A DNA stretch of 64,000 bases from Planctomycetia bacterium (GTDB taxonomy: Bacteria > Planctomycetota > Planctomycetia > Gemmatales > HRBIN36). The DNA lies in contig JAEUIE010000015.1 of NCBI GenBank assembly GCA_016795155.1, forward strand, positions 163,178-227,177, written 5' to 3'. This document shows positions 16,899-26,624 of this stretch, piece by piece; the stretch's first letter is position 1; each line of letters begins with the position of its first letter. The notes beneath the pieces are model-generated. The model did not search any database. It saw only the letters and a program-made list of their open reading frames with translations, and had not been told where the DNA came from. The position numbers and the translations under genes are program-made.

Positions 16899-18128
16899 TT
16901 AGCCAACACTCACGGTAACGCGAACAGGTTTGTTGGTCCCATTGGTGGCGCCAATGGGTTCTTTCATCAGCGAGATAAGGTCTGCATCGTGAATCTGCTT
17001 CTTCTTGTCTGCCAGAGTTTTGAAGCGTGCAAAGATGCAGTCGAGATCCTGATCAGCCAGTACGTGCCCGAGTTCTTCCATGCGGGCTTTGAAAGCATGT
17101 CGGCCTGAATGCTTGCCTAGCACCAGATTGGTCTTGGTGACACCTACTGATTCAGGTCGCATGATTTCGTAGGTGGTGGCATTTTTCAGCATGCCATCCT
17201 GATGAATGCCCGCTTCATGTGCAAATGCATTGGCACCAACAATGGCCTTGTTGGGTTGAACCACGATGCCGGTGTAACCAGAAACCATTTTGCTCACATG
17301 TGCAATCTGCGTGGTATCTATCCCCGTTCGCAGGTTATAAACAGGCTTGCGGGTATTTAAAGCCATCACCACTTCTTCGAGAGCAGTGTTGCCTGCCCGT
17401 TCGCCGATGCCATTGATGGTGACTTCCGCCTGCCGAGCTCCGGCACGAATGCCAGCCAGACTGTTGGCCGTTGCCAGGCCCAGATCATTATGGCAATGAA
17501 CCGAGACGATGCAGTTATCAATACCCTTGGTATTCTTGATGATGCCTGCAATCAGTTGGCCATATTCTTCAGGAATGGTGTAGCCCACCGTATCAGGAAT
17601 ATTGAGCGTGGTTGCACCGGCACGAATGGCCAAGGCCAGCACCTCATACAGAAATGCAGGGTCGCTGCGGCCTGCATCTTCCGGCGAAAATTCTACATCA
17701 GCACAGAGTGAATGAGCATAGCCAACCATTTCGAGCACTTTGTCCATAACCTGCCTGGGTTCCATCTTCAGCTTGTGCTTCATGTGGATTTCGGAAGTAG
17801 CCAGGAAAGTATGGATGCGGGGCCTTTTTGCATGTTGCACAGCTTCCCAGGCTTTGTCGATATCGCTGAATGCTGTACGGGCTAATCCACAAATGATGGG
17901 AGGTTCGTTGCCATTAATGGACTCGTTGCCAACGGTTTTGGCGATCGTTCGAACGGCTTCCAGGTCGTCAGGCGAAGCAGCGGGGAAACCTGCTTCCATC
18001 ACGTCTACACCCAGGCGAGCCAGAGCGCCGGCGATTTCCAGTTTTTCTGCGGAGGTTAAAGTTGCACCGGGGGACTGTTCACCATCGCGAAGCGTGGTGT
18101 CGAATATGCGAACGTAATCGTTACTCAT
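16899..18128 (-). CDS. leuA: 2-isopropylmalate synthase-like enzyme, short form (409 aa, no C-terminal regulatory domain)
   Basis: [14 protein letters not shown] and [16 protein letters not shown] define the catalytic TIM barrel. The ORF stops 2 nt before the leuC start, leaving no room for the roughly 110-aa LeuA_dimer domain. Confidence 0.8.
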
Positions 18129-18208
18129 GATTCATCCTCAGCAGTGGAAGAGGGTCTGCTACCAACAGTGTACGCTACCTGCCGGGGAGATGCCAGTGCC
18201 AGTCCGGG

Positions 18209-19255
18209 TTATCGACGGCGAGGTCTTTCGCGCAATCGCGATGGTCTAGGTTTTCTGGTGGAGTCTTTTTCATCAGGGGCGAGCAGGGAGCCGTGCATGT
18301 CAACCTGCGCCAGTAATTCACTTCCACCCTTGAGTGTGATGTTGAGTGGTTTCTCAGGCTGAGAAGTATCCGCATTTTTTGACAACAGCTTGTCTTCTGC
18401 GGGCTTCTCCTTTTTGAATGGTATGTAGCTGTATTGAAATGGTGTTGAGATTCTGGAAGCCAGGCGTGCGAGTGAGGTATCCTGGCGCGGGATGATATTC
18501 AACTGTGCATGCATCATTCGTGCCTTTTCATCAACCCGTGCTGAAGCAGTCATTTCCCGTGCATCGCGTGAAAGCTGGGATAACATCATCTGTAGAACCG
18601 ATTTTCCAACTTGTGCCTGCAACGATTCTTGTGAATCTTTGCTGTTGCCTGTCATCCAGTTCATCACCGTTGAAAGTCTGTTCGAAAGCTGCACACGTTG
18701 TTGAGCAGGGATTCGATGAAAGTAGAGACTCATGGCCAGTAGTTGTTTCTGGTGTTGTTCGGGAATCATTTGTCTGGGATCAATCTGGTTTCCGGAAACC
18801 TCTGTTTCAGTGAAACCAAACCAGGCATATTGATGCTGAAAGGTCATGGCAATTTTGCCCAACAAGGGAACCTGCACGGAGTACAAATCCTGGCTGGCGT
18901 TCGATACTGAAATCCCATGACGTTCCAGAAAGCCCACAAAGAGCTGCCTGTCGGTGCAGGGAATGAAGGTCACCACCGTTGCATTACCGAGTACATCGGG
19001 TTTGATGATGCAGCCCAGCGGGCGGGCCAGATCAAGCCCTTTCAAATTGCCTGCAATCAGGTTGGTCACCGCAGTGCTATCGAGGGCAGCCACCAGATCC
19101 TTGCGGCCAGCTTGCTGGTAAACAAAACGAAGCCCAGAACGCAGGCTCATGACTGACTTGCCGGTGATAATTCCCCATGGTTCCTGAGCCAGACTCGTTG
19201 TAGCGAGACAAAGAATTGATACTACTACGCTGATATGCCATTTGAACGAATACAT
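18209..19255 (-). CDS. Secreted protein of unknown function
   Basis: Signal peptide MYSFKWHISVVVSILCLATTSLAQEP. 348 aa with a strongly basic tail RKPRPSRLRERPRRR. I recognise no motif. Confidence 0.5.
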   Translation of the reverse strand: MYSFKWHISVVVSILCLATTSLAQEPWGIITGKSVMSLRSGLRFVYQQAGRKDLVAALDSTAVTNLIAGNLKGLDLARPLGCIIKPDVLGNATVVTFIPCTDRQLFVGFLERHGISVSNASQDLYSVQVPLLGKIAMTFQHQYAWFGFTETEVSGNQIDPRQMIPEQHQKQLLAMSLYFHRIPAQQRVQLSNRLSTVMNWMTGNSKDSQESLQAQVGKSVLQMMLSQLSRDAREMTASARVDEKARMMHAQLNIIPRQDTSLARLASRISTPFQYSYIPFKKEKPAEDKLLSKNADTSQPEKPLNITLKGGSELLAQVDMHGSLLAPDEKDSTRKPRPSRLRERPRRR

Positions 19256-19309
19256 GTCATTTCCTCCTGAAACTTTATTGTAAGAGCATTGAAATAATGG
19301 AAGAAAGTC

Positions 19310-19346
19310 TTGACGACAATTTGTTATTAGGTATACCTAACAATAG
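19310..19346 (+). promoter_or_regulatory. Putative promoter (TTGACG-N16-TATACC) overlapped by a DtxR-box-like palindrome
   Basis: The perfect 14-bp palindrome TTAGGTATACCTAA (19327-19340) sits inside a 26-bp imperfect dyad (19321-19346, 10 of 13 positions matching per arm). It ends 17 nt before the ATG of the metal ABC operon. The half-sites TTAGGT/ACCTAA equal the outer half-sites of the DtxR/IdeR consensus TTAGGTTAGCCTAACCTAA. Confidence 0.55.
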
Positions 19347-19362
19347 AAAGTAGGTAAGGCTT

Positions 19363-20313
19363 ATGAACGTTATTCAACGCCTCAGTTTTAAGGTTATTGC
19401 AATAGTACTGATGCTTGCTGGCTTGGCAGGTTGTAAATCCGAAATATCACCATCACGCGCTACTTTGACCTATCAAGGCAGTGGACCGATTAATATCGTG
19501 TGTACCACGGGTATGGTTGCTGATCTGGTTGCCAACATTGGTCAAAAGCATGTAAAGGTGACCCAGTTGATGAAAGCGGGTGTGGATCCGCATCTCTATA
19601 AAGCATCGCCTGGCGATATGAGGCTGTTTAACGAATCCGATGTCATTTTCTATTCAGGCCATCACCTGGAAGGGAAAATGACAGAGTTGCTTGAGCAACT
19701 GAATCGAAAGAAAGTTTCGCTACCTGTCACTGAAAAAATCGATTCACCTTCCCTGCTGCGAACAGAGGAAAACGTTGTTGACCCGCATCTGTGGTTTGAT
19801 GTCAAACTCTGGCAACAGGCATCTTACTTTATTCGTGATGAGTTGTGCCGATACGATCCTTCTCACGCTGCGGATTATCGTGCAGCTTCCGCAGCATATG
19901 ACAAGCAACTCGAAGAGATGGATAAGTATGCCCGTGAACAGTTGGGTACAATCGAGAAATCGCGACGTGTCCTTGTTACTGCCCATGATGCGTTCCGGTA
20001 TTTCGGCAAAGCTTACGACGTGGAAGTCAAAAGCATTCAGGGAATCAGCACTGAAAGTGAAGCCAGCGTCAAGGACATCAATGAACTGGTGAATTTTATC
20101 GTTGCCAGAAAGATCAAGGCAGTCTTCGTGGAAACCAGTGTCTCCGAGAAGAACATCAAAGCACTGGTGGAAGGATGTGCTGCACAGAATCATGCTGTTA
20201 TTGTTGGCGGAGAACTGTTTTCCGATGCACCAGGTGAAGAAGGCAAACCCGATGCAACTTATCTGGGCATGGTGAAACATAATGTCGATGTGATAGTCAA
20301 GGCACTGAAATGA
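19363..20313 (+). CDS. Metal (Mn/Zn/Fe) ABC transporter substrate-binding lipoprotein, TroA/ZnuA/MntC family
   Basis: Lipobox [25 protein letters not shown] and [15 protein letters not shown] are typical cluster A-I SBP motifs. Confidence 0.85.
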
Positions 20314-21077
20314 CAGCACCATTATTGGATGTTCATGATGTGACGGTGGCTTATCACCATAAGCCAGTGCTGTGGAACGTCGATTTCACCATTCACGAGC
20401 CTAGCCTGGTTGGAGTGATGGGCCCCAACGGCGCGGGCAAGAGCACGCTCATCAAGGCGATTCTGAACCTGGTGCCCAAGGCGAGTGGCGAAGTTACCCT
20501 GTTTGGGCAACATCTCTCCAAGGTCAGGCAGCGGGTGGGCTATGTGCCTCAGCGTGAAAGTGTCGATTGGGATTTCCCTATCAATGTGTTTGATCTCGTT
20601 CTAATGGGCACTTATGGCTCGCTGGGATGGTTTCGTCGGCCTGGCAAAAAGGAACGTGAGTGGGCCATGCACTGCATCGAAGAACTCGGCATTGCTGATC
20701 TGGCTCATAGGCAAATTGGACAGTTATCGGGTGGGCAGCAGCAACGTTCATTCCTGGCGCGTGCCTTGGCACAGAAAGCCGACATCTATTTCATGGATGA
20801 GCCGATGTCAGGTGTGGATGCTGCCACGGAACAGACAGTTTTCCAGATTCTCAAGCGACTGCGAAACGAGGGCAAGCTGGTCATGGTGGTGCATCATGAT
20901 ATTCGCACTGCCCAGCAGTATTTTGATCAGCTTCTACTTCTGAATACCCGTCTGGTGGCTGCTGGACCAACTCAGGAAGTATTCCAGCATGAGGCATTAC
21001 AGCGTACCTACGGTGGCAGGCTGGTTGCCTTGGAAAAAGTAGGACTGGCGGTACGAGACAAGGTGCCGACAGCATGA
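20310..21077 (+). CDS. Metal ABC transporter ATP-binding protein
   Basis: Walker [10 protein letters not shown], signature LSGGQQQR, Walker B IYFMDEP. 4-nt overlap with the SBP gene. Confidence 0.9.
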
Positions 21078-21982
21078 GTCATCTCTTTACCTACAACACC
21101 ATGCTGGTGATGGTTGGCACCGGTTTGCTTGGTGCAGTGTCGGGCTTGATCGGGTCGTTTGCAGTTTTGCGTAAACAATCGCTGGCAGGTGATACCTATG
21201 CCCATGCAGCATTGCCTGGGCTTTGCATTGCATTTCTGCTCGCGGGAGAGCGATCACTCCCAGCTTTGTTGCTAGGCGCTTTCCTCAGTGGTCTGCTGGG
21301 GCTGATGCTCGTCAGTCTGATCACGAGATATACCAAAGTCAAAACCGATGCAGCTTTGGGAATTATTCTGAGCACCTTTTTTGGTCTCGGGATTGTCATC
21401 AGCCGTATTGTGCAGAATCAAACCGCCACGGGAAGCAAGGCAGGTCTGGATTCTTACATATTGGGAAAGACAGCAGGGATTATTGCCAGTGATGTCTATC
21501 TGATTGGAGCTATTGGTTTACTCTGCCTGGCGACCATTCTCTTCCTCTTCAAGGAATTCAATGTACTCTGTTTCGACAGCGAATTTGCCAAAAGCCAGGG
21601 CTGGCCGGTGTTGTTCCTTGATTTTGTACTTCTGATGCTGTTGGGATTAGTCGTGGTGACCGGCTTGCCTGTGGTGGGAGTGGTCATGATGGCTGCCCTT
21701 TTGATTTTGCCTGCCGTGACGGCCCGCTTCTGGACTGAGCGGCTGGCAATCATGTTGCCAGTGAGTGCTGCATTCGGGGCCATCACCGGTCTGGTCGGTA
21801 CTTTGCTTTCTGCCGAATTTGCCTATCTTCCAGCAGGGCCGATCATCGTGCTGGCAGGCACCGTGTTCTTTCTGATCTCGGCACTCTTTGCACCACGTCG
21901 AGGCTGGCTTGCACGGCTACGGCAGAGAATGAATCTCGATCTCACTGGCAGTATGGTCGAATGGAAGACTGAAACGCCATGA
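21074..21982 (+). CDS. Metal ABC transporter permease (ABC-3 family)
   Basis: 302 aa and multi-[16 protein letters not shown] matches the ABC-3 pattern. 4-nt overlaps on both sides. Confidence 0.85.
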
Positions 21983-23274
21983 CATCCATAGCACTGTGGA
22001 CAATCCTGGTTGGTGCGCTGGCGAGTGTCAATTGCAGCCTGGTGGGCAGCTTCCTGGTGTTGAGAAAGATGAGTCTGCTGGGCGATGCCATCAGTCATGC
22101 AGTGCTTCCCGGTATCGCCATCGGATTTATGCTCAGTGGCAAAATAACTGGCCCAGCCATTGTGCTGGGAGCTATGGGCATGGGCGTGTTGACTGCGATC
22201 CTCACTCAATGGCTCAGTCAATATGCACGGGTATCAGAAGACGCTGGCATGGGTGTGGTGTTCACTTCGCTGTTTGCTCTGGGAGTTATTCTCATCAACG
22301 TCGCAGCGAAGAATGTTGATCTCGATGCTGGTTGTGTGCTGTATGGGCAGATAGAGTTCACATCATCAAAAACCCTGACACTCGCCGGCCTGGATATTCC
22401 TGAGGCAGTAATCAGCCTGGGACTTATTCTCATCCTGATCGTTGCAATGCTCGCTGTACTCTGGAAAGAACTGAAACTCTCTGCGTTTGATTCCGAGTTG
22501 GCTGATACTTTGGGTTTTTCTTCTTACCTGATGCACCTTTTATTAATGTCGATGACGTCAGCAGTTACCGTCGCGGCTTTTGAATCTGTTGGCTCCATTC
22601 TTGTGGTTGCCATGCTCATTGTACCAGCAGCAACTGCATCACTACTGACTACACGATTATTCAACATGATGATCATGGCTGCTGGAACAGGTATTACATC
22701 CTCAATCCTGGGTTACATGCTCGCCGATGCCTGGAACACCAGCGTGGCAGGCATGATGGCAGTCTGTGCCGGGCTACTGTTCACAGGTGCAGTTTTTCTT
22801 TCACCTTCTCAGGGTGTTATTGTCCGGCTACTCAGGCAGATCAGATTGTCTTTGCGAGTCATGCGGGAAGATGTACTGAGTGCACTCTACCGTGCTCGTG
22901 AGAAATCACAATCAGGACTGCAGCAGGCTGCCTTGCTTCATAACAAGGGAAGCTGGCTCAGGCAATACACAATGAATGTCATGAAACGCCGCAAGTTGAT
23001 TGATGAGGTGGATGGCAGGATTCATCTGACGCAACTTGGCTTACAGAAAGCGGAGCGGATCATTCGCACGCACCGTATCTGGGAATCGTATCTGCAGCGG
23101 AATGTGGCTTTACCTGCGGATCACTTGCATAGCCCTGCAGAATCCATCGAACATTACGTTGGGCCTGAACTGTTGGAAAGTCTGTCAGCCGATTTGAACC
23201 GACCCGCTGCGGATCCGCATGGCAAAGCCATACCAGGTCAAACCCTTAGTAACGAACCACCACTTCAGCAATGA
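21979..23274 (+). CDS. ABC-3 metal permease fused to a C-terminal DtxR-family metalloregulator domain (YtgCR-like)
   Basis: Residues 1 to about 285 form a permease (SLLGDAISHAVLPG, paralogous to the preceding gene). Residues about 293-420 read REDVLSALYRAREK...RIIRTHRIWESYLQ...HLHSPAESIEHYV...DPHGKAIPG. The ligand spacing H365/E369/H384/E388/E391/H392 equals DtxR H79/E83/H98/C102/E105/H106. Confidence 0.8.
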   Translation: MTSIALWTILVGALASVNCSLVGSFLVLRKMSLLGDAISHAVLPGIAIGFMLSGKITGPAIVLGAMGMGVLTAILTQWLSQYARVSEDAGMGVVFTSLFALGVILINVAAKNVDLDAGCVLYGQIEFTSSKTLTLAGLDIPEAVISLGLILILIVAMLAVLWKELKLSAFDSELADTLGFSSYLMHLLLMSMTSAVTVAAFESVGSILVVAMLIVPAATASLLTTRLFNMMIMAAGTGITSSILGYMLADAWNTSVAGMMAVCAGLLFTGAVFLSPSQGVIVRLLRQIRLSLRVMREDVLSALYRAREKSQSGLQQAALLHNKGSWLRQYTMNVMKRRKLIDEVDGRIHLTQLGLQKAERIIRTHRIWESYLQRNVALPADHLHSPAESIEHYVGPELLESLSADLNRPAADPHGKAIPGQTLSNEPPLQQ

Positions 23275-24223
23275 TGCGGTGCTCCAACAATCGTGGCGTT
23301 TCGGAAAGGGGGCGTTCATAGGTAACGCCAAACTCTGCCATGCGGTTGTAGCGTGCTTTCAAACCAACTGCCACCGTGACCAGATCGGAGCCAGTTGTTT
23401 GGGGTATTGACCAGTCGAGCATGGCATCGCCCTGCCCTAAACCTGCAGGATACACGCCACGGCCATCAGTCAGAATGCGGTAGTAATTGAATTCAGCGAG
23501 CGGATGAAGCCAGCCGAATAATTCGCGATCAAGGTGCAACTGGGTAAACAGCAAAGTGCTGCCGTCATTACTGAGCGGTGCGCGAACTCCAGCATTGCCC
23601 AGTAGATGCCAGAAACACCAGAACTCCTGGCCAAACGTCAGTATACCAGTGAGGCTTCCATCACTGGGGCGCTGAAAGACGCTCGCTTCACCGGTAGGTA
23701 TTTCCAACTGCACCGCTGCTGATAACAGTCGTTGTTGTTCAACATCACGAATCAGTACATACTTGGCACCGAATGCCAGGTTGTTCCAACCATCGTTGCC
23801 TGGAGCATTTTCCGGATCGATAAAGGAATAACCATTCTTATCCATGAAGACCTGCCAGCGCTTGGTGAGTGCGACCCGGGTCTGCAACAGGTAAGACTGG
23901 CTGAAGGTATTACCGAGAACCTGATTGGATGGAGTCCAGTTGCCAACTCCCAGGAGGCGAGCTTCTGTTAAAGATCGCGGGTCTTTCGCCAACCACGGAT
24001 TGCTGCTGGGCCCAATAAAGCGAGGAAATGCGCTATCGCTGCTGAGCGAAAGTAATGCTCCCAGCATAATCGGGAAGCCATCATCATCATTTATATGGTT
24101 GTCCAGATCAGGCTGATACCGTGGCACAGGCGGTACTTGATCGACTGTATAGGGATTATCCCCCAACTGAAGACAGCAAATCAATACAAATGCCAGCATC
24201 GAGCGGCCTCCCTGCCGTGACAC
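23246..24223 (-). CDS. Putative outer-membrane beta-barrel protein (function unknown)
   Basis: Short signal MLAFVLICCLQLG, alternating amphipathic strands, and a C-terminal ...IIAEVVVRY ending in an aromatic residue as in OMPs. Its 3' end overlaps the convergent permease-DtxR gene by 29 nt. Confidence 0.4.
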   Translation of the reverse strand: MSRQGGRSMLAFVLICCLQLGDNPYTVDQVPPVPRYQPDLDNHINDDDGFPIMLGALLSLSSDSAFPRFIGPSSNPWLAKDPRSLTEARLLGVGNWTPSNQVLGNTFSQSYLLQTRVALTKRWQVFMDKNGYSFIDPENAPGNDGWNNLAFGAKYVLIRDVEQQRLLSAAVQLEIPTGEASVFQRPSDGSLTGILTFGQEFWCFWHLLGNAGVRAPLSNDGSTLLFTQLHLDRELFGWLHPLAEFNYYRILTDGRGVYPAGLGQGDAMLDWSIPQTTGSDLVTVAVGLKARYNRMAEFGVTYERPLSETPRLLEHRIIAEVVVRY

Positions 24224-24497
24224 ACCTATTCTCTATCGAACGTGTCAAAGTATCGTCTGGAACATGGTTCGCATCATTTGCCAAGAGGACTGCTGTGACG
24301 TAGGCTACACACCAATAGTAACGACTATAACGGCTCTAACGCGGGCATCTGGGCGTTCATCGTTAGAGAATGGCCTTTTTCAGGATTCGTCAGGATATGC
24401 CAGTTTATGTACGTTAATATTGTCCAAGAGCTTATGGCTCTGACTCTTTCTGATTACACGGTCTTGATTACCCGGATGGATTAGGCGGCACAACAGC

Positions 24498-26624
24498 ATG
24501 CCATTACGCTTCGCCTTTGCGCTGCACGATCATCAGCCTGTCGGCAATTTCGACAGCGTGATGTCCCAGGCTTATAACGACGCCTATTTTCCATTTCTCG
24601 ATATTATCAGCCAGTATCCTGAACTCGCCTTCAGCCTGCATGTTAGCGGGCCGCTTCTCGAATGGCTCGAACGCAACAAGCCCGATCATCTTGGTGATCT
24701 GAAAGAACTCGTCAAAGCCGGTCAGCTTGAAATTCTGGGTGGTGCATACTACGAACCCATTCTACCGTTGCTGCCACGTCGCGATCGTGTGGGGCAGATT
24801 CGTCGTTATACTGAAAAACTCAAATCGGTATTTAATTGTGATGTCCGCGGCATGTGGCTCGCAGAACGTGTCTGGGAACCGAGCCTGGTGACCGATCTTC
24901 TCGAAGCTGATATTGAGTATACCCTACTAGATGATTATCACTTCAAGCAAGCTGGCATGGAAGAAGACGACCTGCATGGCTACTTCCTGACCGAAGACCA
25001 GGGATTTCTGCTTCGTATCTTCCCTATCAGCGAACCACTGCGCTACATGGTTCCCTGGAAAGATCCTTCGGAAGCCATTGCCTATCTCGATCTGCTGGCA
25101 GAAACCTATCCTGATTCGGTAGTCGTCTGTGCGGATGATGGCGAAAAATTTGGCTCATGGCCTGGCACCAATACCTTGTGCTACCAGAATCAATGGCTCA
25201 CGAAATTCTTTGACCTGCTGCTCGAACGGCAGGAACAGGAAAAGATACAACTGGTTACGTTGTCGCAGGCGTTGGATGAAACTCCGCCTCTCAATACCAT
25301 CTATCTGCCTGAATGCAGCTACCGCGAAATGACCGAATGGGCTTTACCAACAAGCAGGCAACTCAAACGACAGAAGTTGTTGAAGCAGTTTGAAGGCAAG
25401 GGTGTGCAGGAAGAAATCAAGAATAACCTGCGTGGCGGCATTTGGAGAAACTTCGCTTCCAAGTACCCTGAAGTGCGCGAGATGCAGGCTCGAATGATTG
25501 AGGTCAGCGATCACGTTGCTGCCGCTGCATCCAATCCTTCGATTGAGACAGCGATTCATGAACTCTATCGCGGCCAATGCAACTGCCCTTACTGGCATGG
25601 GGCGTTCGGCGGATTGTATCTGCCTCACCTACGCCAAGCCATTTTCAAGCATTTAATATCGGCGGACAATGTTTGTCTGCCTGACGATGTGGCTGCAGGT
25701 CAGCGGGTGGATATTGAACTGCATGATTTCAACCTGGATGGGCGGCGCGAACTGCGCATTGCTACGGCACTCTATGTTGCTTACTTCTGCCCGCATCAGG
25801 GTGGCATGCTTTACGAACTGGATATCAGGCCAGTGAAATACAACCTGCTGGCAACTATGACCCGCCGGCCCGAACCTTACCATGAAACGATCAAGCAGAT
25901 CGGTTCGAGCAAGGTACAAGCGGGAGTCAATCCCGGGCAGCCGGCACAGTTCAAACAGGCTGAACTGGATCAGCAGCTGGTGTATGACAAGTATCCTCGC
26001 AAAAGTCTGATCGATCATTTCTTTCCTCTCGATACCACACTGGAAAACGTGGTGAAGCACAACGAGGAAGAATTGGGAGATTTTGTTCAAGGCCCATACA
26101 TCAGGCGATTGATCGACCGTGACACACATCAAAGACTGCGTCTGTATCGACAGGGTAAAGTACGCAGCGATACCGTGCATGTTTCCAAGGAAATTGTCGC
26201 ATCGGCAACCGCCAATACTTTAACAGTGCGTTATCGACTGGATGATTTGCCTGCCAAGCCAGATTATTATTTTGCTGTCGAATTCAATTTCGCAGGATTT
26301 CCATCAGATCAAGATGATCGCTACTATTATCATGCTGGCAAGAAGAATGCAGGCCCAACTCAGACATTGATTGATTTGAAATCTACCGATCATCTGGGCG
26401 TAGTAGATGAATACCTGGGGCTGGACTGCAGGTTGCAGACATCATCACCCGCAGGCATCTGGGCATTTCCAATAAGAACTGTCAGCCAGTCTGAAGCAGG
26501 ATTTGAACTGGTACACCAGGGCGTTACGATGATTGCTTACTTCCAGCCACAACCGGACCCAGCCGGACACTGGGAAGTTGAAGTCGTATTAAAAATAGAT
26601 GCACACCGACGTAAATCAGGTTAG
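24498..26624 (+). CDS. Glycoside hydrolase family 57 alpha-glucan enzyme (amylase / glucanotransferase type, 708 aa)
   Basis: N-terminal FAFALHDHQPVGNF, then ILGGAYYEPILPLL and DDGEKFGSWPG, which are typical GH57 blocks. Confidence 0.85.
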   Translation: MPLRFAFALHDHQPVGNFDSVMSQAYNDAYFPFLDIISQYPELAFSLHVSGPLLEWLERNKPDHLGDLKELVKAGQLEILGGAYYEPILPLLPRRDRVGQIRRYTEKLKSVFNCDVRGMWLAERVWEPSLVTDLLEADIEYTLLDDYHFKQAGMEEDDLHGYFLTEDQGFLLRIFPISEPLRYMVPWKDPSEAIAYLDLLAETYPDSVVVCADDGEKFGSWPGTNTLCYQNQWLTKFFDLLLERQEQEKIQLVTLSQALDETPPLNTIYLPECSYREMTEWALPTSRQLKRQKLLKQFEGKGVQEEIKNNLRGGIWRNFASKYPEVREMQARMIEVSDHVAAAASNPSIETAIHELYRGQCNCPYWHGAFGGLYLPHLRQAIFKHLISADNVCLPDDVAAGQRVDIELHDFNLDGRRELRIATALYVAYFCPHQGGMLYELDIRPVKYNLLATMTRRPEPYHETIKQIGSSKVQAGVNPGQPAQFKQAELDQQLVYDKYPRKSLIDHFFPLDTTLENVVKHNEEELGDFVQGPYIRRLIDRDTHQRLRLYRQGKVRSDTVHVSKEIVASATANTLTVRYRLDDLPAKPDYYFAVEFNFAGFPSDQDDRYYYHAGKKNAGPTQTLIDLKSTDHLGVVDEYLGLDCRLQTSSPAGIWAFPIRTVSQSEAGFELVHQGVTMIAYFQPQPDPAGHWEVEVVLKIDAHRRKSG

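Follow-up and report, generated by a model that had tools for sequence, protein, structure and literature searches.

In a 64,000-nucleotide stretch of Planctomycetia bacterium DNA (contig JAEUIE010000015.1; the whole stretch is hereafter called the window), the fourth and last gene of a metal-uptake operon, at 21979-23274 on the forward strand, codes for the second of the two membrane subunits of a Mn/Zn-type ATP-binding cassette (ABC) importer (ABC-3, cluster A-I) fused to a cytoplasmic module of the MntR/DtxR fold. We infer that this C-terminal module, hereafter the tail, responds to the metal being imported by lowering its uptake in a negative feedback. Tentatively, and with somewhat less than even confidence, we favour the reading that the tail remains joined to the permease and regulates the transporter directly, as a tethered metal sensor or brake. 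Fusion of a permease with a DtxR-like module outside Chlamydia is already in the literature and is routine in Planctomycetota; what is of interest here is a phylum-wide, always-tethered DtxR-fold domain whose metal site is kept while its DNA-reading surface drifts, with MntR genes next door.

The fusion gene, its metal site and its DNA-reading elements

The operon runs in the order substrate-binding protein (SBP), ATPase, first permease (PermA) and second permease with tail (PermB::tail), each gene overlapping its neighbour by 4 nt. The fusion gene starts with ATG and encodes 431 amino acids, which in Pfam match ABC-3 (PF00950) at residues 5-273 (E 4e-51, 174 bits against a cut-off of 20.1) and Fe_dep_repr_C (PF02742) at residues 351-419, over the full length of the latter model (4e-19, 68.8 bits against a cut-off of 27). 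The permease domain is paralogous to PermA (33% identity, E 5e-37) and homologous to the solved PsaC (PDB 7kyo/7kyp, 1e-33) and ZnuB (9oko, 7e-16). When the C-terminal 157 residues of the fusion were used as the query, tail residues 296-423 aligned with residues 4-133 of the solved M. tuberculosis MntR, ScaR, SloR, IdeR and DtxR, and the best sequence and structure matches of the tail were 5zr4, 8pvt and 8pw0. An SH3/FeoA third domain is absent, the fusion ending 12 residues past the DPHGKAIPG motif. Using phmmer on six-frame open reading frames (ORFs) at E<0.1 with DtxR, MntR and Fur as queries, we found no further homologue of these three regulator types in the window. The architecture described in the initial annotation of this DNA therefore stands: an ABC-3 permease with a two-domain DtxR-like module lacking SH3, fused on the last permease gene, which is a paralog of the preceding 302-aa gene, in a window where no free-standing regulator of the queried types was found. 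The planctomycete origin is likewise right.

Permease and tail are read in one uninterrupted frame across the junction, both other frames being closed by stops, and the fusion is present unbroken in each of the 120 best homologues, among them a 96%-identical protein found on eight contigs. Hence it is not an assembly artefact, and the earlier worry that a stop or frameshift might split the gene is removed. No convincing internal ribosome-binding site was found at the junction. An internal start at M295 (ATG 22861-22863, before helix 1, reading MREDVL...; 137 aa, 15.6 kDa, about the size of MntR) was rejected as unsupported, since no Shine-Dalgarno-like sequence lies upstream and the residue is not conserved, being present only in the window protein and its closest relatives and mostly I, A, V or H in other relatives.

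The C-terminus was expected to be cytoplasmic, and the topology agrees: Lys and Arg are concentrated in the odd-numbered loops, a coupling helix lies at 161-181, and a linker with a net charge of +5 follows the ninth transmembrane helix (TM9), all of which place the tail in the cytoplasm. An AlphaFold2 (AF2) model was built from 102 homologues, with a mean predicted local distance difference test (pLDDT) score of 87.8, a predicted template modelling score (pTM) of 0.81 and tail pLDDT of 92-97. Its permease part superposes on PsaC (7kyp) with a Foldseek TM-score of 0.82 normalised to the target and a root-mean-square deviation of 3.4 Å. The helix at 280-308 is continuous in the model (pLDDT 93-95) and leads the linker into sensor helix 1, which bears D298; as modelled, the tail is attached to the permease apparently rigidly.

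The ligand spacing H365-E369-H384-E388-E391-H392 proposed at the outset proved exact in pairwise alignment, in which these residues stand opposite DtxR H79, E83, H98, C102, E105 and H106. D298 aligns with DtxR M10 and MntR D8, and Ser301 occupies the position of MntR E11 (both references, DtxR and B. subtilis MntR, passed landmark-residue checks). The metal domain comprises H365, E369, D381, H382, H384, E388, E391, H392 and D412-P-H-G415, and in alignments of 22 and 102 homologues (47-96% identity) the metal-site residues are invariant or nearly so, E388 excepted, while helix 1 carries an invariant E297/D298. It is therefore plausible that the tail binds the imported metal in the cytoplasm, probably through D298, H365, E369, H384, E388, E391 and H392, perhaps also H382 and H414. 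Because this putative ligand set is MntR-like and consists entirely of oxygen and nitrogen donors, Mn2+ is our best guess for the cognate metal. Judged from the SBP and ATPase, specificity appears ambiguous between Zn and Mn: the best NCBIfam matches of the SBP are AztC (Zn) and then the Mn SBPs EfaA and MntC, and that of the ATPase is a Deinococcus-type MntA, all below the curated cut-offs.

The initial annotation also spoke of a complete repressor, and it proposed three hidden Markov models (HMMs) as a check on the protein. The predicted fold is indeed complete, and two of the models, ABC-3 and Fe_dep_repr_C, match. However, the third, Fe_dep_repress (PF01325), which describes the N-terminal winged helix-turn-helix (wHTH), does not match the window tail alone even at E<=10, nor does any generic HTH family at the same threshold, and PF01325 is on record for none of the 120 best homologues. 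What points to a winged helix is the alignment with PDB entries, together with the predicted fold, in which helix 2 is vestigial, with only three residues by DSSP. Sequence entropy amounts to 3.19 bits in the helix 2 region, which also has indels, 2.43 in helix 3 (residues 325-337) and 2.36 in the wing (341-350), compared with about 1.1 in the TM helices, 1.05 in helix 1, 1.37 in helix 4 and 0.88 in the following loop and helix 5; even the linker, at 1.56 bits, is more conserved than helix 3. The DNA-reading elements (helix 2, helix 3 and wing) are thus the least conserved structured region of the whole protein, whereas the metal-binding and dimerisation domain, with 0.88-1.37 bits in the metal-site helices, is the best conserved part of the tail. 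Exposed positions of helix 3 are frequently Pro, Gly or Ala across the homologues.

Relatives, partner tails and neighbouring regulators

An identical protein is already in NCBI under the name 'MAG: metal ABC transporter permease [Planctomycetia bacterium]', and all 120 best homologues (45-96% identity), from Gemmatales, Tautonia, Pirellulales, Planctomycetales and Zavarzinella, have both PF00950 and PF02742. Some of them are named 'permease subunit/Mn-dependent DtxR family transcriptional regulator' by JGI. A word-indexed protein search with the tail alone returned no matches, and an exhaustive HMMER search was required, which found 3225 relatives among 1.84 billion representatives, 630 of them at E<=1e-10. 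Among the best 150 of these relatives the match is always C-terminal, either in full fusions or in fragments that start in the last TM helix or the linker, and a clear free-standing form of the tail is absent from this set. At least 595 species-representative genomes encode a relative, the best 80 being almost all from Planctomycetota, including Phycisphaerae. The family is very large and essentially always permease-tethered across Planctomycetota. Moreover, Thompson et al. (2012) identified permease-repressor fusions in 11 phyla, according to a review (PMC5599777). With that report, the JGI names and the 595 or more genomes, the fusion is not new outside Chlamydia, and the novelty claimed for its occurrence outside the Chlamydiae has to be given up.

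Loci from metagenome-assembled genomes (MAGs) labelled as other phyla (Conexibacteraceae, Bacteroidales, Alcaligenaceae, Vicinamibacteraceae, Deltaproteobacteria and others) were also encountered (L001, L012, L037, L038, L053, L062, L073 and L074). The tail of L037 (CAVUYP010000001.1, 2.9 Mb) is about 86% identical to that of the Pirellulales locus L020 over the roughly 80 residues compared, so that at least some of the non-planctomycete labels look wrong; they were not accepted as evidence for spread of the family.

The same fusion was found in 78 independent genomic loci, usually in the layout SBP-ATPase-PermA-PermB::tail with the fusion on the last gene; in relatives either the last permease alone or both permeases bear a tail. 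Synteny with the window is complete, flanks included, in five close homologues (58-81% identity). Given the gene order A-B-C-D-R of the tro operon, this layout could be obtained by simple fusion of the last permease gene with an adjacent DtxR-family gene, and common descent with YtgC as an ancestral trait of the Planctomycetes-Verrucomicrobia-Chlamydiae group is not needed to explain the data. About 13 loci have no detectable SBP, ATPase or PermA gene within 6-7 kb upstream of the permease::tail gene (L003, L006, L024, L030, L032, L042, L043, L045, L047, L051, L059, L075 and L076), and these may be orphan fusion genes or follow a different operon layout.

Among the loci with a detected PermA, 24 have a ligand-bearing tail on this first permease as well (class Aa), 19 have a degenerate tail without ligands (class Ab), and 15, the window included, have none. 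Class Aa tails show the motif ...NHRLWE...HVDRDADxIEH...SPH, with PF02742 confirmed in L026, L039 and L056; they do not have the helix 1 'ED' ligand, and their helix 3 is comparatively conserved and polar (R[ST]W[ST]xxRL[RK]). At these loci the transporter would hold two different tails. Besides the three loci just named, the class was seen in L015, L021, L023, L027, L029, L031, L034, L036, L038, L048, L050, L060 and L062, and in L067, L069, L071-L074, L077, L079 and L080. Class Ab tails keep a DtxR-like length and pattern (...LT..G...A....R..RLW...) and have lost the His/Glu ligands and the DPHG motif; their Pfam matches are weak or nil (E 3e-4 in L017, no match in L063), and each looks like a retained, ligand-less partner domain. 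In a neighbour-joining tree the B tails (those on PermB), the Aa tails and the Ab tails are each monophyletic, with 22-27% mutual identity, and they are no closer to one another than to free DtxR/MntR. Tails that come in pairs, with ligand-less partners kept, fit a structural tethered pair better than a repressor.

Nine related operons are directly adjoined, mostly divergently, by a canonical free-standing DtxR/MntR gene. Eight of these nine regulators are two-domain and MntR-like, and the remaining one (L038) has three domains, with FeoA. All nine match PF01325 (1e-9 to 7e-12), serving as a positive control for the HMMs, and the eight two-domain proteins also match the MarR, GntR and Crp HTH families. 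The latter carry MntR-type ligands (AEDYxE, DAEGIEHH) and a helix 3, V[TS]HVTV[TV][KR][ST]I, that is highly conserved across distant orders. Tails and free regulators are about 26% identical. Since nine loci hold both, a classical repressor and the tails coexist.

The promoter dyad and readings of function

Between the -35-like element and the ribosome-binding region of the operon lies a dyad, tTATTAGGTATACCTAAcAA, which is a candidate operator, judging from its sequence and its position where a repressor would bind. Its perfect 14-bp core, TTAGGTATACCTAA (19327-19340), overlaps the promoter and is the sole TTAG-N6-CTAA site in the 64 kb, against 0.22 expected, so that the dyad noticed initially is real. 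The dyad tTATTAGGTAnACCTAAtAA, which holds this core, is kept at a fixed offset in L081, L083, L084, L085, L002 and L001, where the flanking intergenic DNA diverges. The half-sites TTAGG and CCTAA are the pentamers of DtxR boxes, spaced by N4 here and by N9 in the DtxR boxes themselves (TTAGG-N9-CCTAA; PMC524172). The geometry TAGN-N4-NCTA is shared with loci that lie beside a free MntR gene (L026, GTAGCACAGGCTAC; L031, TTAGCACAAGCTAT; L056, TTAGCATAGACTAC; L077, ATAGCATATACTAC), and a TTGAC element precedes the dyads in MntR-adjacent loci as well. It is also the geometry of a palindrome, AAACATAGCAAAGGCTATGTTT, that we located directly in the sequence of the E. coli K-12 mntH promoter and that corresponds to the MntR box. 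The half-sites are TAGC in six of six MntR-adjacent loci and TAGG or TAGT in seven of seven window-clade loci.

A second dyad, TTTGA-N4-TCAAA (for example TTTGATTGATCAAA and TTTGATTAATCAAA), lies upstream of about two dozen other operons regardless of the helix 3 of their tails, and in L038 it stands in the intergenic region shared with the three-domain DtxR-like regulator. No clean pattern of co-variation between helix 3 and operator type emerged, Arg328 being found with both types of dyad. Control by a riboswitch was rejected, as positions 18000-24600 gave no Rfam match at E<=1 and the 5' untranslated region is too short.

In the reading that we tentatively favour, metal binding would bridge helix 1, through D298, to the second domain of the module, and the resulting domain closure would be passed to the permease or ATPase interface and slow transport, a brake resembling trans-inhibition. 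Closure could be transmitted in this way because helix 1 forms one continuous helix with the linker that leaves TM9. A genuine DNA-binding protein of the MntR/DtxR type would then read the promoter dyad, and its gene may lie elsewhere in the genome. We favour a tethered brake on the grounds that the DNA-reading elements have drifted and match no HTH model while MntR genes coexist with the tails; that tails occur in pairs, have no clear free form among the closest relatives and hang on a conserved linker continuous with helix 1; and that the ligands are invariant and the tail is placed confidently by AF2 (pTM 0.81). Going further, it is possible, although we would not lean on it heavily, that the tails make up a distinct, obligately tethered branch of the DtxR/MntR fold that has given up sequence-specific DNA binding and serves as a built-in metal gauge, on the cytoplasmic side, that throttles the importer directly. 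Transporters with two ligand-bearing tails, with a live and a ligand-less tail, and with a single tail would then represent successive stages of a regulatory pair.

A number of points weigh against a tethered brake. Contact of the tail with the ATPase or permease is hypothetical, and the known trans-inhibition domains reside on the ATPase subunit, not on the permease (PMC10710835). YtgCR, the one fusion of this kind to have been characterised, is DNA-binding and acts as a repressor of its own promoter (PMC5599777). Over about 130 columns, our AF2 tail superposes by Foldseek at 1.6-2.4 Å on DtxR, DNA-bound IdeR and Deinococcus DR2539. In the window clade helix 3 is polar and basic (SWLRQYTMNVMKRRK), residues 309-351 hold eight K/R vs. 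three D/E, and Q329 aligns with the base-contacting Q43 of DtxR. A free-standing regulator adjoins the operon neither in the window clade nor in its syntenic relatives. The TAGG/TAGT half-sites, as opposed to TAGC, would be in keeping with another protein, for instance the tail, reading the dyad in this clade. Finally, with one tail per transporter, a classical DtxR dimer is impossible within a single complex.

Alternatively, the tail might be a YtgCR-type autoregulator which, released or membrane-anchored, dimerises, binds the TTAGGTATACCTAA dyad and shuts the operon when metal is replete. We consider this less likely than the tethered brake but a serious alternative, and the two roles are compatible. 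Besides the experimental precedent in Chlamydia, it would account for a predicted fold that is complete in wHTH and dimerisation parts (pLDDT 92-97) and matches DNA-bound IdeR and DR2539, for a polar/basic helix 3 with a conserved Arg328 and with Q329 opposite DtxR Q43, and for a phylogenetically footprinted promoter dyad that has DtxR-type half-sites, is the sole such site in the window and differs in its TAGG/T half-site from the TAGC of loci with free MntR; it also suits a window in which no second regulator of the DtxR, MntR or Fur types was found, and syntenic relatives that have no adjacent regulator. However, the wHTH of the tail matches no DNA-binding HMM whereas the neighbouring free MntRs do, its helix 2 is vestigial in the model, and its DNA-reading elements are the least conserved in the family. 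An unlinked MntR could equally read the window dyad, since the same geometry occurs where a canonical MntR is next door, and the genome was inspected over the 64 kb of the window. Furthermore, no cleavage site or internal start is evident in the sequence, and a single tail per transporter would need a partner from another complex to dimerise. Our analysis gives no sign that a fragment of about 15 kDa is released by proteolysis, as the initial annotation had envisaged, and the chlamydial product is 28-30 kDa.

A dual or partner-switching role, in which the tethered module gates the transporter and also affects transcription, by binding DNA at the membrane or by sequestering free MntR in a heterodimer, seems improbable. 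In its favour, no part of the tail is better conserved than the dimerisation/metal domain, nine loci hold both tails and free MntR genes, and full-length YtgC also repressed in E. coli, with membrane-anchored LacI as a precedent (PMC5599777); yet an identity of only about 26% between tails and free regulators does not imply heterodimerisation. That the tail is an artefact of frameshift-joined genes, or a functionless relic in decay, is effectively excluded. Degeneracy of the helix 2 and helix 3 region, and PermA tails that have decayed or been lost in some lineages, the window included, might hint at it, but the gene runs in one frame while stops close the other two, the fusion recurs in 120 of 120 best homologues and in 78 independent loci, and ligands and linker that are invariant or highly conserved throughout the phylum are incompatible with neutral decay.

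The closest known counterpart is YtgC-YtgR of Chlamydia trachomatis (CT069), in which an ABC-3, TroC-like permease and a C-terminal DtxR/TroR-like module likewise form one ORF of an SBP/ATPase/permease/permease operon. There, however, the fusion is on the third gene, i.e., the first permease, and is followed by ytgD, whereas the window fusion is on the fourth and last gene. For chlamydial YtgR, DNA binding was shown experimentally and a cleavage product of 28-30 kDa was observed, as stated in two papers (PMC5599777; PMC7755916). This product is about twice the 15.6 kDa of the window module counted from M295, and, provided that the chlamydial module is about as large, transmembrane helices may still be part of the 'released' fragment. 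The troABCDR operon of Treponema pallidum has the same order of SBP, ATPase, permease, permease and DtxR-family regulator, and a troD-troR fusion would give exactly the architecture seen here; TroR is a separate soluble protein, whereas in the window no stop codon lies between the permease and the regulator-like module.

Two-domain MntR-type repressors (B. subtilis, E. coli, DR2539 and M. tuberculosis) resemble the tail in having two domains without SH3, Glu at the position of DtxR C102 and Asp at that of M10, and the E. coli mntH-promoter palindrome has the geometry of the window dyad. Unlike them, the tail has Ser at the position of MntR E11, is membrane-tethered and is not matched by PF01325, and the V[TS]HVTVTK motif of planctomycete MntRs has no counterpart in its recognition helix. 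With respect to the favoured tethered brake, a likeness is found in the C2 domain of MetN and the C-terminal domain of ModC from M. acetivorans, cytoplasmic substrate-binding domains that are covalently part of an ABC importer and provide immediate feedback on uptake (PMC10710835). Those domains, however, are on the ATPase, in two dimerising copies and with unrelated folds, whereas the window has a single, predicted DtxR-fold domain on the permease.

Since the known trans-inhibition domains (MetN C2, ModC) are located on the ATPase and have other folds, a tethered brake on the permease would be new. If true, direct post-translational feedback on metal import by such a tail would be a new mechanism in bacterial metal homeostasis, the first trans-inhibition module that an ABC importer carries on its membrane subunit, and the first instance in which a DtxR-fold repressor has become an allosteric domain of a transporter; the working of chlamydial YtgCR would then deserve to be re-examined.

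Coordinates and neighbouring genes

Table 1. Features of the operon and its promoter region in the window (positions in the window), and loci of related features elsewhere (positions within each locus).
Feature	Position or locus	Strand	Remarks
-35-like hexamer TTGACG	19310..19315	+	TTGAC (19310-19314) invariant in the window and six syntenic/related loci
Operator-like dyad	19324..19343		Between -35 element and ribosome-binding site
Ribosome-binding region GTAGGTAAGG	19350..19359	+	AGTAGGTAAGGCT conserved directly 5' of ATG
SBP (periplasmic metal-binding, cluster A-I, ZnuA/PsaA/TroA family), 316 aa	19363..20313	+	PF01297, 1.5e-76
ABC ATPase, 255 aa, without extension	20310..21077	+	PF00005, 8.5e-30
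PermA, first permease, 302 aa, without C-terminal tail	21074..21982	+	PF00950, 4e-64
PermB permease domain of fusion, residues 1-274	21979..22800	+	PF00950; nine membrane segments, N-terminus out, C-terminus in
Arg-rich linker, residues 275-296, SPSQGVIVRLLRQIRLSLRVMR	22801..22866	+	AF2 helix, net charge +5
Divergent winged-helix part, residues 297-351	22867..23031	+	Aligns with residues 4-65 of solved MntR, ScaR, SloR
Metal-binding/dimerisation domain, residues 352-420	23032..23238	+	PF02742, 4e-19
Disordered C-terminal 11 residues and stop codon	23239..23274	+	pLDDT ~50; 3.23 bits, 44% gaps
Class Aa PermA tail (ligand-bearing)	L026:4828-6105, L039:4890-6179, L056:4716-6152		About 20 further loci
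Class Ab PermA tail	L008-L010, L014, L016-L020, L022, L025, L028, L033, L037, L040, L049, L063, L064, L068		
Free regulators	L026:1064-1477(-), L031:1946-2467(-), L038:2080-2817(-), L039:2283-2948(-), L050:806-1582(+)		PF01325 and PF02742
Free regulators	L055:2715-3254(-), L056:2257-2730(-), L061:2715-3362(-), L077:2167-2637(-)		PF01325 and PF02742
Second-dyad loci	L005, L007, L015-L020, L022, L033-L038, L054, L063, L068, L071, L080, others		Upstream of SBP genes

The operon is flanked on both sides by reverse-strand ORFs that have no Pfam match. Downstream, a convergent ORF of 325 aa (23246-24223) runs into the fusion gene, sharing 29 nt with its 3' end, and the ORF's position and strand are taken by called genes of 318-340 aa in the syntenic loci L081, L082, L084 and L085. 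Upstream, an ORF of 348 aa (18209-19255) with a hydrophobic N-terminal stretch is transcribed away from the operon promoter region. L081 and L085 have genes of 348 and 356 aa in the same place, and the ORF occupies the spot where other lineages carry a free MntR gene.

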